Source of the DNA: Candidatus Aenigmatarchaeota archaeon
GTDB taxonomy: Archaea; Aenigmatarchaeota; Aenigmatarchaeia; Aenigmatarchaeales; Aenigmatarchaeaceae
Assembly (NCBI GenBank): GCA_043814985.1
Contig: JBDRJK010000019.1
Coordinates: forward strand, 1 to 64,000
Length of the DNA stretch: 64,000 bases
Reading direction: 5' to 3'
Made by a program: the position numbers. Positions 36,001-42,000 of this stretch are shown one piece after another. The stretch's first letter is position 1, and each line of letters begins with the position of its first letter.

Positions 36001-39000
36001 AGAGGCGGCTTCGGCAACAGGGCCGGGAACAACAGATTCGGGAACAGCAGGTTCGGCGGGAGAAGGTTTGGAAGCAGAAGGTTTTAAAAACCTTAAGTGG
36101 TAATGATAGGTATGGCTGAAAAGAAGCAGATGAGAGCACCATCAGGCATGGCAGGCTTAGTGAAATACGAGGACGAGGGAGATAGCCTAATAAAAATGAA
36201 GCCTATTCATGTTGTAGGCATAGCTGTTGGTCTGATTGTCTTTGAAATGATAATGTTCTTAGCAATTCCACTTTAGAAATCATAACATCTTTATAAGAGG
36301 AAAACAAATATTCTATATGATTGACTTTAGGCTCTGGAAAGACGCGCTATTAAAGCCAGAGAAAACCTTTAGTAAAGAAAAATCAAAAGCAAGCCTTACC
36401 AAGGCAATGAAAAATATCTTTGTGGCAGGAATAATAGCAGGCGTCATAACCACTATTAGAGCTTTTAATTTGACCGAACTCTTGTCCAACATTATTCTGA
36501 GCCCTATAGCATCAATCCTTGGTCTACTATTAATCTCTGGTTTATACTACATATTTGCCAAGCTTCTTGGAGGAAAGGGAGCCTACACAGTGCAGACTTA
36601 TTTGATATCACTGTATACTGCTCCACTTTCAATCATAGGATCATTGATAGCATTGCTAGTCCCAGCAACACCAACCATGGGCGAAATAACCGTAGGCTTT
36701 TTGGCACCGTTTATTGTTTTCTTTTTACTAGCACTTGTACTATTTTTATATACCCTGTATCTGCTGACGCTTGCCTTGAAAGAGACCCACAAGTACACTG
36801 TTTGGAGGGCAATTTTGTCATGGCTGTTGGTAATCTTAATAATGGTTTTAGTCTTAATGGCACTGGTAGGCGTTGCCTTTATGGCTTTTATGGGTGGCTT
36901 CTCACCTATCTCAGAAATACCACAGCTTCTGGTTTGATTCTAGACGAACCTTGCAAGATAGTCTAATGTTTTTTCATGTAGTCAATAACAACCTGGTCAA
37001 CCCTTTTTGGTAATGTAGGTATAAGCCTTTTAGTTATGCTGTTTTTCGTTCCCCAATCTAAATTTGTTGGCAGATTTTGTGCTATTCTTTTACCAACTAG
37101 TGTTTCGTCCCCAATCACGTATGCTATTTTTTTACGATTTAACTTACCAAGAATATCACTCGAATAATGTTTATGTTTGAGAGTACATTTTCCCAGTGAT
37201 ACATAAAGAGTATTAACAGGACCCCTTCTCTCCAGCTTTCTTATTAACCCACTCGTGATGCGGACAGGTTTTCCTAAAGTCTCAGCAACTTCTTCTATTG
37301 TCAGGGGATTTCTCTTTAGAAGTCTGAAAATCTCATCCTGAGCTGGAGTTGGATATCCCTTCCTCCCTCTACCTTCATCAACTTCTTCCAAATCATCCAA
37401 ATAAGTTAGTTCTCCAAAATCAATCATAAGCCTAAATTGCAAAGAAAGCTTTAAGTGCTTCACTACCCTCGGTGGTAAGGAAGCAATAATCTGCTACTCC
37501 TTTCTATTATTCTTCATGATAGAAAATAAGGTTGTGTTTGTCCCGCATTGTATTCTAAATCCTGCTATAAGGAATAATTCAAAATCAACAAAAGAAATTA
37601 TAGAACTTTTCACGAAATCAGATATAGGTATAATCCAATTGCCTTGTCCTGAATCGGAATACAATGGAAAACTGGTAAAACAATCAAAGAACAAAGAAAA
37701 ATACAGAGTTCATTGTAAGAAACTTTCCTTAAAGGTTATGAAAGATATTAGAAAATACTTGGATGCTAATTATAAGGTTCTTGGAATTTTGGGCGTTGAG
37801 TTTTCACCTACGTGTGGAGTCCATAGAATAAGAAATGGCAAAAGGAACGTTCCTGGAAAGGGCATTTTCATAGAGGAGTTGGAGAATGAAATGCAGAAAA
37901 ATAATTTCCAAGTGCCCCTTATAACGACAAACCTTCAAAACATTTTTTCAACTCTAGAGAAAATGAGTTTGCTAATAAAAAATTGTTGAGGTGATAATAT
38001 GGATGAATATATTATGAAAGATTCAGTCGGATATTCGCAGAGATCGTATCTGCAGCCTTCAGTCTCTTATTTCGGTGGGAACTTGGAGGCAGGGGAAAAC
38101 ACAGTCTCTGTACTGGCTAAAACAGCAGCTGCAATCGCTCTGGCGCTTGTCGGACTTGCTGCAACAGCGGCAAGAGGGTCTGAGAGCCCTCTAGATGGGT
38201 GATTGCTTGTTTGACTTTCAGCAATTGGTTTCAGACCTTAGCGAGGACAAGCTTTTACCGTCTGTTCCAAGAAAGGGAAACCAAGTTGAGCTCTTGAAAA
38301 CCGCTGAAAGATTTTTCGAGGATATGAAAAACAAGAAGATATATCCTAGGGAGCTTGACAGCCCTTTGGGGTGCCAGTTAGAACTGACGCACAAGTGCAA
38401 TCTTAATTGCAAGCAGTGCTACAATATGTCCAACTGCCAAAAGCCTGACATTTCCTTCAAGAGATGGATGAACGTTGCAAAACAGCTAGTTGATATGAAC
38501 ATATTTGAATGTGTGATATCTGGTGGCGAGCCATTGTTACTTGGAGACAAATTATACGACTTAATGGATGTTCTACATGACAGTGGAATGAGATTCATAC
38601 TTGTCACAAACGGGATGCTCGTAGATAAACATGTGATTGACAAACTGAGCAAGTACGACTATTACTGGGTCCAAGTCAGCATCGATGGTTCAAGACCTGA
38701 GATACACGACAAGATAAGGGGTGTTAATGGAAGCTGGAAAAAAGCTGTCAATGCTGCAAAGATGGTGTCCCAGTCTGGAATGCCACTGGTCGTATCCCAT
38801 GTAATTCAGAGGGATAATGTAGACCACATAGATGAGATGATTGAGACATCTTACCTTTTGGGAGCTAGAAGACTGATAACTGGCAAGTTCACATATTCGG
38901 GAAGAGCAATATTGAACAAAAATGAAATAGATATCGAAGAAAACAAACTAAAGCAGGTTTTCAATCTCTTGAAAACAAGACACAGTCAATACACTGGGAG

Positions 39001-42000
39001 CATGGAGATAGTCACTTCCACAGATCCGGTTTTCTATCTCAGATACAGGGTTTTCGAGCCGTGCAACGTGCTTTTGATAAGACCCAATGGTGACGTAAAG
39101 CTGGATTGCATACTGCCGTTCAAGATAGGAAATGTTATGGAAGAGGGCATATCCAGTATGTGGAGTAGGACTGGAAAGTCAGCTTGGAGAAATGAGCAGG
39201 TCATAAAATACATAGATTCGATAAAGGAGGAGAGCGACATGCTAAGGATTAGGCCGAGGCCCTATATTGACGAAGATATTTTGATAAGGTGAGAAAAATG
39301 CATGACTATATTATAGACTTACTCAAACCTTTAATGCCTAAGAAAATAGAATCCAAAAAGATCAGGAATGACAGTGATTTCTTGATACTCAGGGAAAGGA
39401 ACAAGAAGATACTCATCCTGAACCCCACTGCAAGAGAAATCTATGAAATATGTGATGGCAGGACAGTGGGTCAAATCATAAATGCTATGAGTTCGGTTTA
39501 TCCTAGTATAGACAGGAAGAAAATATCTGTAGATGTCATAAGGTGTCTTAGGGATATGGAAAGAAGAGAACTGCTTTTAATGAGATGACCTTAATGAAGG
39601 AACTACCTGTAACATTTGAATGTAAAAAACAGCAGATAGTGGGCATATACCATCTTTCAAATAATAAAAACCCTCCAACAGTCATAATGTGCCATGGTTG
39701 GGGAGGAAATAAGCTAGGAACCTGGAACGGATTGTTTGTAAAGGCTGCCAGAGAGTTTTGCAAAAACGGTTTTTCAGTATTAAGGTTTGATTTCAGGGGC
39801 TCTGGAGATTCTCAGGGCGATTTTAATAAGCAAACAAACGACACCTTGCTAGAAGATTTGGATTGTGTGATAAACAGTATAGGTTCTGATGTTGGTCTTA
39901 TAGGCCATAGCTTAGGAGGCAAGGTTTCCATACTAAAAGCTTCTATGGATAAAAGAGTAAAATGCCTGGCAGCATGGGCCTCTCCCGTGCATAAGGACTT
40001 CTTTACTAAGTCATTTATTGAGGAAATAGAACAAAGAAAATTCATTTATTTCAATGAAATTGGTTATGGTGTCAGCAAGAAGCAGATAAACAGCTATTTG
40101 AGATATGATACTGTAAAAGCTGCAAAGAAGATTAAAACACCCTTTCTGATTGTTAATGGAAGCGAAGATACTTCAGTTTATCCTTCCCAGGCAAGGAAAT
40201 TGTATAAGAATACTAACCGGCTTAAAAAACTGGTCATAATAAACGGAGCTAATCATCTTTTTCTTAGCAAGGAAAAACAACTGATAAAGGTAACCCTGGA
40301 CTGGTTTAAAAAATATTTAAGAAAATAAGAAAAATAAAAGAAAAAATTAAAAAATTTCAAGACTAGCTCAGTGATCCGCTTAGAGTTCCTGTGCTCTTCA
40401 AGCCTGTCAAACTACCTGCTGTGTAGGTCACAATAAGATATACGTTGTAGTTCTCACCAGTGCTTCCCGTGTTTGCACCAGCACATGTTAGTGTTTGAAG
40501 ACCTGACCTACCACCTGCTGCTACAGTGCCGGGAGTAAACCCAGTACAAGCTGTTGGTGATGCTGGTAGTGTAGTTCCCTCGTCCACAGTAATGTCTGTT
40601 ATATTTATTGTCTGGCCAACCCTGTTCTCTAGCTCGAATCTGAGAACGTCTGCTGAGCTCAAATCCCAAGGTGATATAACATCAAGTTGTGAGAATCCTG
40701 TCTTTGTTGCAGGCATTGATGCTGCTGGGTTGAAGAAACCGTACCAAGCTAAGACCCCTGCTACTATCAAAATTATCAAAATTGCCCATCCATAGGTCAT
40801 TAGGTACTCTATTGCTGTTTGTCCTTTCATTTTCTTACCTCCTATTTTAATAATTCTATTTTGTAAACCCGATACTTAAAGTTTTCTATAGCTGGAAAAA
40901 GCTGCCGAATATTGTGCTAATCAGGAAGAATGCCACTAGGAAAACTGATATTGCTCCCAGCATGAATAATGGTATGAATTTAATACCATTCTTCTCCTTG
41001 CCCGTCTGTATCAGTCCTATTATCAGTGACCCAAAGAAGGTTGTGATAGCTATTGAGGTTATGGCAAACCAGAACAGTTGGTCAGGGGTTATCTGTGGGG
41101 CGCTTGCCTGTGAGAGAAAACCACCTGCCATCTCAATGCTTCCACTCGCTTCTACGCCTCCTAACACCTCAGGCGACCACAACTTTGTCATGACCTCCAC
41201 GAAGAACAGGCTCATGGCATACAGCATGGGGGCGCCTAAAACAGCTGCAAACAGAATGAATATTGAATAAGTTGTGACAGATGCTTTTATCTCCCTTTTC
41301 ATGGCCTGGGTAACCCTTATGTTGTTGGCAGTCTCCTCAAGCAAATGTGCCAGCTCGCCTCCTGATTCAATGCCTTCAATCAGCAGCTTGACTGCCTTGT
41401 CAAGAATATCGGATTTCACCCTCTGCTTTATTTCCAGAAGTGCGATTTTGATGGGCTTTCCACCAACAGTCTTTGACCCGACTCTCCTTATCTCTTCCTC
41501 AAGCAATCCGAACTCAGGCCTTGCTGCAAGAAGTATTGCCCTGTCAACAGTCATGCCAGCCCTTATGTTTGCTGACATCAGCTGGAGAGCGTCAGGCAGT
41601 ACCTTCTCTATTTCCGCTGCCCTTGAGTCTGCTATCAGGATGATTAGGACTTGAATAATGCCCAGTGTCAGCCCTCCTATTCCCAGTCCTATTATGATTC
41701 CAGTGATGCCAAGGCCTATGAGAAACAGGTCAAAGGCAATTACCAGCCCTAGGAATATTGAGAAAAAGAAAGTGAAGCCTATGAACCTCTCAATTATGTT
41801 TTCCTTGACGCCCGCATATATTAGCTGCTTTACGAGAGATTGCTTGTACTTCATAGGTGTGTAATAAAACAATTTCTCTCTCATCTTGCCGAGTTTTTTC
41901 AATTTCATCTATTTCACCATCATAGGCCTCTTTGTCTTGATTATGCCCATATAGAAGTATTGGAATATCGAAAGTACCACAATTATTAGTGGGAATACCA

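Follow-up and report, generated by a model that had tools for sequence, protein, structure and literature searches.

A putative RiPP-type peptide-maturation cassette with a radical SAM enzyme and a discrete PqqD-family protein in an Aenigmatarchaeota genome

Does the gene cluster at 37516-40328 of the window (the whole stretch of 64,000 nucleotides analysed here) encode a system that matures a ribosomally made peptide, and is the 67-aa ORF inside it the substrate? A preliminary description had read the combination of a small ORF, a PqqD-type protein and a radical SAM enzyme as a RiPP locus. Our analysis supports that reading, and we consider it likely that the cassette is a RiPP-type peptide-maturation system with the 67-aa peptide as its substrate. 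The support comes from purifying selection on the peptide ORF, from a peptide family that accompanies the enzyme and the PqqD protein, from an invariant YxxPx motif and from natural enzyme-PqqD fusions.

Gene layout and distribution of the cassette

The ORF calls bear out the five co-directional, tightly packed genes described before:

37516-37989, + strand: TudS-like (DUF523, CD3072-type) putative Fe-S protein, 157 aa
37999-38202, + strand: putative precursor (substrate) peptide, 67-aa ORF
38195-39292, + strand: radical SAM enzyme of an uncurated SkfB/PqqE-like family, 365 aa in the longest-ORF call
39289-39588, + strand: discrete PqqD-family RRE (peptide chaperone), 99 aa, PF05402
39585-40328, + strand: alpha/beta serine hydrolase, accessory gene, 247 aa

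A rescan agrees with the earlier Pfam and NCBIfam assignments of the proteins, and among the ORF calls the cassette contains no second candidate substrate besides the 67-aa peptide. A spacer of 9 nt separates the TudS-like gene from the peptide ORF, the enzyme and PqqD genes overlap by 4 nt, and the hydrolase start overlaps the PqqD end by another 4 nt. The spacing between peptide and enzyme depends on the choice of start codon. The reported 8-nt overlap holds for the longest ORF, and may be an artefact of taking that ORF because, judging from the sequence, the true start is probably TTG 38207, which leaves a gap of 4 nt. This start gives the MFDFQQ N-terminus of the orthologues and a protein of 361 aa, as in the database record P0001, and with the start placed there a GGTGA lies over the peptide stop codon.

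As reported earlier, five of the 371 phylum genomes have an orthologue of the enzyme (G000, G012, G013, G011 and G008, E 3e-253 to 1e-187); the next-best match in the phylum has an E-value of 2.3e-32 and 31% identity. The conserved gene order at these loci was also recovered, with peptide, enzyme and PqqD together in all five and the TudS-like gene in four. Fifteen archaeal-type metagenome loci all contain the peptide ORF, and the eleven that are long enough show peptide, enzyme and PqqD together, the other four being short contigs.

The cassette is therefore rare within the phylum, as had been claimed, but it is not confined there, since most of the enzyme family is bacterial: it is also present at 62 bacterial loci from several phyla. 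In bacteria the small ORFs are situated between the enzyme and PqqD. Wherever enzyme and PqqD are 150 nt or more apart, as they are at 43 bacterial loci, the gap contains an ORF (same strand, at least 35 aa), and YxxPx[VILMFA] occurs within the first 45 aa of 41 of these 43 gap ORFs, compared with 15 of 1594 background ORFs; many of the loci are close kin, so the locus counts are not independent. Each locus has one to several peptide copies, whose parts after the motif differ widely in length and sequence. The enzyme has a separate PqqD ORF as its neighbour at 47 of 65 loci from genomes and at 19 of 22 from metagenomes, and the two proteins are naturally fused in P0044, L071, L072 and L075. 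The family loci share no conserved gene for a protease, an exporter or immunity. The three genes for peptide, radical SAM enzyme and PqqD protein are linked in both domains, and they form an uncharacterised system that is common in bacteria, well beyond this tiny archaeal genome.

The 67-aa peptide and the PqqD-family protein

The peptide matches no family in the Pfam and NCBIfam scans. Its ORF is under purifying selection (median dN/dS 0.195, 29 pairs) and has a GGTGA 5 nt before its ATG, which argues that it is a real gene. When the whole genome was searched with a profile of the peptide family, the ORF at 37999-38202 was the sole match (E 5.6e-7). Every archaeal-type locus has an orthologue in the corresponding position; those of the phylum are 82, 82, 49, 52 and 40% identical to the window copy, and G013 has two tandem copies. 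The motifs VSYFGGNLEAGENTV and RGSESPL, pointed out before, are indeed present. The archaeal peptides are conserved over their whole length, beyond the leader. Two parts of the peptide matter for the argument:

38047-38064, + strand: putative RRE recognition motif YxxPxV (Tyr17-Leu-Gln-Pro20-Ser-Val22) in the leader, from an alignment of 61 peptides
38104-38172, + strand: Ala-rich hydrophobic segment (Val36-Ala58), putative core or membrane-helix-like part, read from the sequence

Tyr17 and Pro20 are the only invariant columns among the 61 aligned peptides. All 19 archaeal-type peptides, a set chosen by similarity and independently of the motif, carry YxxPx. The pattern [Y/W]xxPx[L/V/I/F/A] is the leader motif bound by discrete lasso/PqqD-type RREs (PMC13381572), and PMC12710340 gives the same motif for discrete lasso RREs.

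The PqqD protein obtains 43.2 bits with PF05402. Among solved structures its family profile matches PqqD best (5sxy, 1.2e-7); it also matches 3g2b and the lasso RREs TbiB1 (5v1u, 6.1e-7) and TfuB1 (6jx3, 6.6e-5). The features by which RRE-dependent radical SAM RiPP loci are recognised, i.e. a CxxxCxxC motif, a PqqD-like domain and an adjacent small gene with a conserved leader motif, are all found here. We propose that the PqqD-family RRE would bind Tyr17-x-x-Pro20-x-Val22 in the N-terminal part of the peptide and present to the radical SAM enzyme what follows, the Ala-rich hydrophobic stretch and the short polar tail.

The Ala-rich half of the peptide could be a membrane helix. The best 19-mer of the window peptide has a Kyte-Doolittle mean of 2.06, and a mean of at least 1.6, i.e. 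membrane-helix-like, is reached by 79 of 97 family peptides. On approximate Hessa-scale values, the same 19-mer scores +1.85 kcal/mol and 7 of the 97 peptides reach 0 or less, so that the hydrophobic half is marginal as a membrane helix by this measure. An Ala/Gly-rich segment is located at the equivalent place in the bacterial family peptides. The window peptide contains no Cys; downstream of the motif a Cys is present in 32 of 97 family peptides, and none is conserved.

The radical SAM enzyme and its possible chemistry

The enzyme matches Radical_SAM (PF04055) with 86.3 bits. Its best NCBIfam matches are PqqE (8.2e-37, 127 bits against a cut-off of 381), mycofactocin (MftC; 1.5e-33, 116 against 265), GeoRSP (1.7e-31, 110 against 400), SkfB (6.7e-26, 91 against 300) and WgkB (9.2e-26, 91 against 650), and none of the best 25 of 81 rows is above its curated cut-off. 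The closest solved structures are SkfB (6efn, 1.5e-35) and then PqqE (6c8v, 4e-29). We found no curated model of this enzyme family and no publication on it. Two cysteine sites stand out:

38396-38419, + strand: radical SAM cluster motif Cys68-x3-Cys72-x2-Cys75, invariant in the family alignments
39107-39109, + strand: codon of Cys305, in the motif IRPNGDVKLDC, the only widely conserved C-terminal Cys

All three columns of the CxxxCxxC motif are Cys in 76 of 76 family rows, and the Cys305 column in 71 of them. The C-terminal region contains at most two Cys in 61 of the 76 rows, versus 7-10 in five SPASM outgroups, one of which is g00695 of the same window. In the alignment to 6efn, the partner of Cys305 is a Cys in the twitch region of SkfB, and Cys305 thus stands at a former cluster ligand. 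The absence of SPASM noted in the preliminary description was confirmed, as the Pfam scan gives no match to PF13186, but this is not an issue of Pfam sensitivity: the loss of the auxiliary-cluster Cys is a true trait of the family. From its sequence, the SPASM/twitch domain appears degenerate. Since the enzyme lacks all but one of the SPASM/twitch Cys, it probably holds no auxiliary cluster, and a redox-neutral outcome would therefore be expected. Membership of the SPASM/twitch maturases (PqqE, MftC, SkfB, sactisynthases) was rejected on the single conserved C-terminal Cys column, the missing PF13186 match and the scores below cut-off.

The PQQ system is alike in that its radical SAM enzyme PqqE also works with a small peptide (PqqA) and a discrete chaperone (PqqD), and PqqE and PqqD are among the closest relatives of the two proteins here, PqqE as the top NCBIfam and second-best structural match and solved PqqD as the best structural match. 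It differs in that the enzyme here lies far below the PqqE cut-off and lacks the SPASM Cys, the peptide, unlike PqqA, is 67 aa long and in part Ala-rich and hydrophobic, and the cassette has neither pqqB nor pqqC. SkfB, the sporulation-killing-factor sactisynthase, contains an auxiliary cluster and links Cys to C-alpha. Its alignment with the enzyme begins in the radical SAM core and runs on into the start of the twitch, including the Cys305 pair; unlike its system, the window has a Cys-free peptide and an enzyme with one C-terminal Cys.

A discrete PqqD-type RRE and a [Y/W]xxPx[L/V/I/F/A] leader are also shared with the lasso B1 RREs (TbiB1, TfuB1) and the LPP family (PMC13381572; for the motif also PMC12710340), the docking here being a prediction from sequence. 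In contrast to lasso systems, the modification would be carried out by a radical SAM protein, and the ORF calls and Pfam scan show no lasso cyclase, B2 protease, kinase or SpI peptidase in the cassette. A lasso pathway was rejected, as no Asn-synthetase-like cyclase or B2 leader protease was found among the ORFs of 33-44 kb or in the cassette Pfam scan. The radical SAM epimerases (PoyD/OspD of proteusins, YydG/EpeE of epipeptides) resemble the enzyme only in their possible working: according to PMC13012085, those of proteusin type lack an auxiliary cluster, and a Cys quenches the C-alpha radical, as with the hydrogen-donor Cys of EpeE. Their substrates are hydrophobic residues. The cassette uses a discrete RRE and has no nitrile-hydratase-like leader. 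The EpeE/YydG chains match the enzyme over the radical SAM core only (7.6e-8, residues 57-218), and no PoyD structure or family is present among the 22 solved matches or the best 25 of 81 NCBIfam rows; membership of the PoyD or YydG/EpeE families by sequence was rejected on the core-only match.

The enzyme would generate a 5'-deoxyadenosyl radical and abstract a hydrogen from the peptide, and the hydrolase may then cut off the leader. As to the outcome, our leading guess, a tentative and somewhat doubtful one, is C-alpha epimerisation with Cys305 as the hydrogen donor and a membrane-active hydrophobic peptide as the product. Against it, Cys305 aligns with a former cluster ligand, away from the EpeE donor loop, and is missing in 5 of the 76 family rows; the core-only match to EpeE also speaks against it.

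Alternative readings and accessory genes

The same three genes might instead make a cofactor from the peptide, in the manner of PQQ or mycofactocin, with the peptide as a scaffold whose invariant Tyr (with Pro) reacts and from which a small molecule is excised for intracellular use. PqqE and mycofactocin maturase, the nearest curated families among the best 25 of 81 NCBIfam rows, both act on a Tyr of their peptide, Tyr and Pro alone are invariant here, and there is no conserved exporter or immunity gene. We regard this pathway as unlikely, as the scores are far below both cut-offs, the auxiliary clusters of PqqE and MftC are missing, cofactor precursors are single-copy where these loci have one to several differing copies, and YxxPx[V/I/L] is already known as an RRE docking motif (PMC13381572). 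The small ORF could also encode an ordinary small membrane protein that stays unmodified, such as an anchor, a partner or an immunity factor; the enzyme and PqqD would then act on some other substrate. A hydrophobic segment of about 23 residues with charged residues on either side, the Kyte-Doolittle means of the family and conservation that spans the entire archaeal peptide, leader included, would fit such a protein. However, the cassette offers no other candidate substrate, this ORF is the one match of the genome to the peptide profile, the RRE motif is invariant, and the small ORFs track enzyme and PqqD across phyla while varying in number and sequence like precursor genes, which makes this reading quite improbable.

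Two further readings concern the chemistry. Thioether formation as in sactipeptides or ranthipeptides is suggested by SkfB being the best solved match, aligned through the start of the twitch domain, but we give it hardly any credence: its NCBIfam score is far below the cut-off, the auxiliary-cluster Cys used by such enzymes are missing and the family peptides share no conserved Cys after the motif. On the Cys-free window peptide it is excluded by composition. It is also very unlikely that sulfur insertion, or another reaction needing a second Fe-S centre, occurs with that centre supplied in trans, the TudS-like protein of archaea or the CxxCxxCC protein of bacteria carrying sulfur or electrons in place of the lost auxiliary cluster. 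In both domains the enzyme is indeed directly preceded by a small gene of Cys-rich or Fe-S type. In archaea this is the TudS-like gene, with four invariant Cys, in 11 of 19 archaeal-type loci with upstream DNA; of 65 bacterial loci, at least 37 have a CxxCxxCC ORF (PF03692), immediately upstream in 32. Neither partner is universal, however. The TudS-like gene is absent from the other 8 of the 19 loci, G000 has no PF03692 gene, and in bacteria a CD3072-type TudS is present in only one of five genomes, i.e. it is not linked to the enzyme.

Within the RiPP-type reading, we regard the TudS-like protein and the hydrolase as accessories that belong to the archaeal version of the cassette. The hydrolase, possibly a leader peptidase or an esterase, matches Hydrolase_4, Abhydrolase_1 and Peptidase_S9 in Pfam, and among solved structures carboxyl-esterases and S33-type hydrolases come closest to it. 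Ser109 (GHSLGG), Asp195 and His224 are invariant in seven orthologues. Of the 13 archaeal-type loci that have 750 nt or more of downstream sequence, 10 show the gene after PqqD and three lack it.

The TudS-like protein scores below both cut-offs, with 23.9 bits against 34.7 for PF04463 (E 4.6e-5) and 116.6 against 130 for NF045597, and no solved structure was matched at 1e-3. Its invariant residues are Cys12, Cys44, Cys67 and Cys100 (10 aligned relatives); the [4Fe-4S] cluster of TudS/DUF523 uses three Cys ligands, and Cys12, Cys44 and Cys100 are the candidates for them here. TudS-like genes form a large family in DPANN, and this window has a second copy, so the adjacency may be an inherited neighbourhood. 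The bacterial CD3072-type TudS is located about 55 kb from the enzyme, if, as assumed, both are on the same contig.

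Cassette layout and the radical SAM enzyme family

The preliminary description had read the cassette as a candidate RiPP locus, and the Pfam and NCBIfam assignments that it gave to the genes were reproduced here. The cassette is formed by five tightly packed ORFs:

First of five ORFs in 37516-40328, + strand: TudS-like protein, 157 aa
37999-38202, + strand: small ORF, 67 aa
Within 37516-40328, + strand: radical SAM enzyme, 365 aa as longest ORF
Within 37516-40328, + strand: PqqD-family protein, 99 aa
Last of five ORFs in 37516-40328, + strand: alpha/beta hydrolase, 247 aa

The TudS-like gene and the small ORF are separated by 9 nt, and overlaps of 4 nt join the enzyme to PqqD and PqqD to the hydrolase. 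No further ORF of 40 aa or longer overlaps the small ORF. Its ATG is preceded by a GGTGA at a distance of 5 nt, and a second GGTGA runs across its stop codon, 4 nt ahead of a TTG at 38207, which suggests translational coupling between peptide and enzyme. Translation from this TTG gives the N-terminus MFDFQQ, the same as in the orthologues. Due to this N-terminus, the GGTGA placement and the length of the database copy of the enzyme (361 aa), the real start is probably TTG 38207 and not ATG 38195. The 8-nt overlap of the two genes reported earlier holds for the longest ORFs; with a start at 38207 it would be a product of the longest-ORF choice. Genes in the loci were called by a simple longest-ORF rule.

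Among solved structures the enzyme is closest to SkfB (6efn, 1.5e-35), with an alignment that reaches the first part of the twitch domain, and to PqqE (6c8v, 4e-29). The alignment to YydG/EpeE is confined to the core (7.6e-8). According to passages in PMC13012085, SPASM domains usually carry two clusters and twitch domains one. All 76 family members have an intact CxxxCxxC motif, and after the barrel there is one mostly-Cys column, Cys305 in IRPNGDVKLDC, found in 71 of the 76 rows. The C-terminal region contains at most two cysteines in 61 of these rows, compared with seven to ten in five SPASM outgroups, one of which is g00695, a radical SAM/SPASM enzyme of the window with eight. Some relatives show a weak Pfam SPASM match, which spans only the first part of the profile, where RPNGD...C...GN lies. 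Given the cysteine pattern that characterises SPASM and twitch domains, and the loss of C-terminal cysteines across the 76 members, we conclude that the family appears to have descended from twitch/SPASM maturases and to be no longer able alone to hold an auxiliary cluster.

An enzyme orthologue is present in five of the 371 phylum genomes, as described before: G000 (the genome studied here), its three congeners and G008, with the next match at 31% identity. A search of 5.8 billion proteins gave 1340 matches with E<=0.001 among 3731 candidates. The source names of full-length relatives with 38-49% identity include Clostridium cadaveris, Clostridioides difficile, Bacillota, Epulopiscium and a Helarchaeota MAG, and the names in the ESM Atlas, which contains no model of the enzyme, are automatic only, e.g. 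'hypothetical protein' or 'putative Fe-S oxidoreductase'. Scanning one genome per species, we found 66 loci, 4 archaeal and 62 bacterial, the latter from Selenomonadaceae and other Bacillota, Synergistota, Treponema, Brachyspira, Thiotrichaceae, Succinimonas, a Moraniibacteriota MAG and Solirubrobacterales. Cultured, harmless species are also represented, such as Natroniella acetigena and Anaerovibrio lipolyticus. A scan with the profile of the archaeal-type loci (those of the phylum genomes and related metagenome loci) gave 27 metagenome loci, 15 of them archaeal-type (L079-L092 and L105); many of the relative loci are MAG contigs and close kin. No match was found on plasmids by tblastn with a bacterial family member as query. 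PADLOC identified no defence system, and the similarity to viperin is restricted to the radical SAM core.

Peptide maturation by radical SAM enzymes guided by a RiPP recognition element (RRE) is well known as a kind, and radical SAM RiPPs are a main source of new peptide chemistry. Neither Pfam nor NCBIfam release 20 has a curated model for the present enzyme-peptide family, and full-text literature searches, whose scope excludes most subscription journals so that a description elsewhere is possible, returned no paper on it. The family is thus apparently uncurated and unstudied, yet it occurs in rumen and gut Bacillota, Synergistota, Spirochaetota, Thiotrichaceae, a CPR bacterium and Aenigmarchaeota.

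The small ORF as a candidate precursor peptide

A similar ORF stands ahead of the enzyme in all archaeal-type loci, in two tandem copies in L016 (the locus of the congener G013), L079 and L105. In the bacterial loci PqqD is flanked by ORFs of 53-108 aa. These share a short N-terminus, M-K-x-x-Y-x-(K/R)-P-x-(V/I/L), followed by an Ala/Gly-rich hydrophobic stretch and a polar tail, and in 43 of 78 bacterial peptides a second proline lies exactly 13 residues past the first. The overall composition of the peptides is 18% Ala and 9% Gly. No family in Pfam or NCBIfam matches them, and among 52 relatives obtained by profile search only two have a source name, in both cases 'hypothetical protein'. The single match to the peptide profile in G000 is the small ORF itself. 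The archaeal small ORFs are under purifying selection, with a dN/dS of 0.05 between the window ORF and its closest orthologue and a median of 0.195 over the 29 pairs with 0.1<dS<3, many other pairs being saturated.

The lists of bacterial peptides were selected by the motif and an Ala/Gly filter, and a separate filter-free test was therefore performed. In all 43 bacterial loci with enzyme and PqqD at least 150 nt apart, the gap contains an ORF of 35 aa or more on the same strand. The motif YxxPx[VILMFA] occurs within the first 45 residues of the gap ORF in 41 of these loci, compared with 15 of 1594 other ORFs of 40-120 aa from the same loci. In L039 and L040, the two remaining loci, YxxP is present but continues with other residues. 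Using the motif alone, at least one motif ORF lies near the enzyme in 54 of 65 genome loci (one in ten loci, two in 22, three in 16, four in four, five in one and six in one) and in 21 of 22 metagenome loci; the background rate predicts about 0.3 chance motif ORFs per locus, so the higher copy counts are soft. All 19 archaeal-type peptides, which were collected by similarity and not by motif, also contain it, and when 61 peptides are aligned only two columns are invariant, those of Tyr17 and Pro20 in the window peptide.

A membrane-helix check of the peptides was ambiguous: the Kyte-Doolittle mean is 1.6 or higher in 79 of 97, while the Hessa scale gives 0 or lower in only seven of the 97.

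In Selenomonadaceae (L037, L048, L074, L031 and other loci) there are two peptide classes, each seemingly with a fixed position. The class between enzyme and PqqD ends in a ...F(R/K)LPSL... tail, the other has an ...IDSSHTxxLTxRKxF tail and follows PqqD in one to three copies; together they may form a two-component product. In the distant actinobacterial loci (27% identity) a 32-aa ORF, L075:4773-4871 and L076:4773-4871, is located directly upstream of an enzyme-PqqD fusion. It contains Y-E-P-P-S-V and is otherwise polar and non-hydrophobic, and the leader motif may thus be older than the Ala-rich core.

Predicted docking, candidate chemistry and accessory genes

In the window peptide the motif reads Tyr17-x-x-Pro20-x-Val22. 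According to parts of PMC13381572, discrete lasso-peptide RREs recognise [Y/W]xxPx[L/V/I/F/A], and the leaders of another RiPP family share YxxPxV. In the passages concerned, PMC12710340 lists YxxP as a characterised recognition sequence and groups FusE, McjB, PqqD and StsC among the RREs binding W/Y/LxxP/L/I. The family profile of the PqqD chaperone matches solved PqqD structures (5sxy, 1.2e-7; 3g2b), TbiB1 (6.1e-7), two PqqD-family entries from 2026 and TfuB1, and four relatives (P0044, L071, L072 and L075) have enzyme and chaperone in one protein, the chaperone being at the C-terminal end. Due to the published meaning of the motif, these profile matches and the fusions, the natural reading is that of a leader motif, its RRE and a maturase, with PqqD predicted to bind the leader.

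From the observed parts of the cassette and their linkage, we infer docking, substrate handover and hydrogen abstraction. PqqD would bind Tyr17-Val22 as an added strand, and the enzyme, with about 55 residues before its cluster motif and apparently no RRE of its own, would receive the downstream part of the peptide. A 5'-deoxyadenosyl radical would then abstract a hydrogen. A redox-neutral end would be the simplest outcome, since there is probably no auxiliary cluster to accept an electron. The resulting peptide would be hydrophobic and would probably seek out membranes. The candidate substrate is defined and its docking motif predicted.

A SkfB/PqqE-like body that lacks the auxiliary-cluster cysteines is odd, and raises the question of what the enzyme does to an Ala/Gly-rich peptide. 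Passages in PMC13012085 state that a cysteine quenches the C-alpha radical in the two known kinds of radical SAM peptide epimerase, and that the proteusin kind has no auxiliary cluster. By analogy, the single conserved cysteine and a substrate rich in Ala, Val, Gly and Ile make epimerisation our first guess, a tentative one. Thioether chemistry was rejected because the window peptide contains no cysteine. An alternative is a reaction at the invariant Tyr17.

A further alternative to epimerisation is a reaction in which the upstream Fe-S protein takes part in trans. The TudS-like protein has four invariant cysteines and belongs to a large DPANN family (357 matches). Its gene is upstream in 11 of the 19 archaeal-type loci holding upstream DNA and absent in eight. 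A second paralogue of 166 aa, 56% identical to the cassette copy, is encoded at 51980-52477 (-), and a canonical TudS (PF04463, 139 bits) is found on contig 10. A family-wide partnership with TudS was rejected, as CD3072-type TudS (NF045597) is present in one of five enzyme-bearing bacterial genomes; it lies about 55 kb from the enzyme there if its contig, C2, is the record of the enzyme. In Bacteria the upstream place is occupied by a 90-aa CxxCxxCC protein (PF03692). Among the 65 loci with 350 nt or more of upstream sequence, at least 37 have it, and in 32 of them it stands directly before the enzyme. In G000, at a genome completeness of 91%, we found no PF03692 gene, and the literature searches, again excluding most subscription journals, returned nothing on the role of CxxCxxCC/YkgJ proteins.

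A wider reading, which we consider rather unlikely, is that of a new RiPP class. A radical SAM maturase that has lost its auxiliary clusters would be directed by a discrete YxxP-reading RRE, and its reaction on Ala/Gly-rich cores resembling membrane helices would be new or unexpected. It could epimerise the core iteratively, to pore formers of the gramicidin or polytheonamide kind, or insert sulfur together with a small Fe-S protein that acts in trans (TudS-like in archaea, CxxCxxCC in bacteria). Such a class would be common to gut and rumen bacteria, giant sulfur bacteria, CPR and DPANN, and the archaeal peptide might then act on the membrane of the host.

In archaeal-type loci without the TudS-like gene, a glycine-zipper-like membrane protein of 99 aa is encoded ahead of the peptide gene instead:

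L081:4365-4664, glycine-zipper-like protein
L083:4408-4707, glycine-zipper-like protein
L086:4384-4683, glycine-zipper-like protein
L087:4375-4674, glycine-zipper-like protein

Of the 13 archaeal-type loci with 750 nt or more of downstream DNA, 10 carry the hydrolase gene after PqqD, and it is absent from the three genome loci with enough downstream DNA (L013, L014, L016). The hydrolase resembles carboxyl-esterases and S33/S9-type hydrolases, has an invariant Ser109, Asp195 and His224, and might be what removes the leader if the leader is cleaved off. No protease or transporter is common to the enzyme family.

Origin and genomic neighbourhood

A quick maximum-likelihood tree was built from 76 family members and five SPASM outgroups (81 rows), with 15 near-duplicate or truncated loci left out. 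The 15 enzymes of the archaeal type group together as one clade (SH-aLRT 99), whose sister group is a pair of Bacillota enzymes, L017 and L018 (96); all other members of the family in the tree are bacterial. The loci L017 and L018 have the gene order of the archaea, with PqqD directly after the enzyme, and their peptides contain Y-x-x-P-T-V-S-N. The position of the clade, together with the shared gene order and peptide motif, is in keeping with a single transfer between Bacillota-like bacteria and a lineage of Aenigmarchaeota; its direction rests on a long-branch outgroup root. A DPANN genome of 0.8 Mb has kept a cassette probably gained from bacteria, which hints at a modified hydrophobic peptide in the dealings of the symbiont with membranes or neighbours.

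A second peptide-maturation-like cassette is located 4 kb upstream, at 33113-34687 (+):

33113-33271, + strand: 52-aa ORF, overlapped by an opposite-strand ORF and unproven
33283-33546, + strand: PqqD protein (PF05402, 41 bits)
33548-34687, + strand: radical SAM/SPASM enzyme (SPASM 36 bits, 8 C-terminal Cys)

The best NCBIfam match of this enzyme is ScmF, with 191 bits against a cut-off of 400. In the 52-aa ORF, Tyr36-Asn-Ala-Pro-Asp-Phe41 fits the RRE motif and is followed by an 11-residue tail ending in Cys. The search of the 371 phylum genomes gave no orthologue of the second cassette with more than 38% identity, and in the three congeners it gave none.

Divergent from the main cassette, with its start 52 nt away, is a 166-aa protein at 36963-37463 (-) with weak winged-helix matches (TrmB, E 0.004), which could be a local regulator; it is present in the locus of the window only and not in those of the relatives. 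The long archaeal-type metagenome loci share the neighbourhood of the window, with Yip1-like membrane proteins upstream and a pilin-like locus downstream. In the window the latter, 40363-44333 (-), encodes a protein of 155 aa whose N-terminus is hydrophobic and pilin-like (no Pfam match), two polytopic membrane proteins and a 516-aa ATPase, and by eye it looks like an archaeal type IV pilus-like locus. This type of neighbourhood also follows the cassette in related archaeal contigs.
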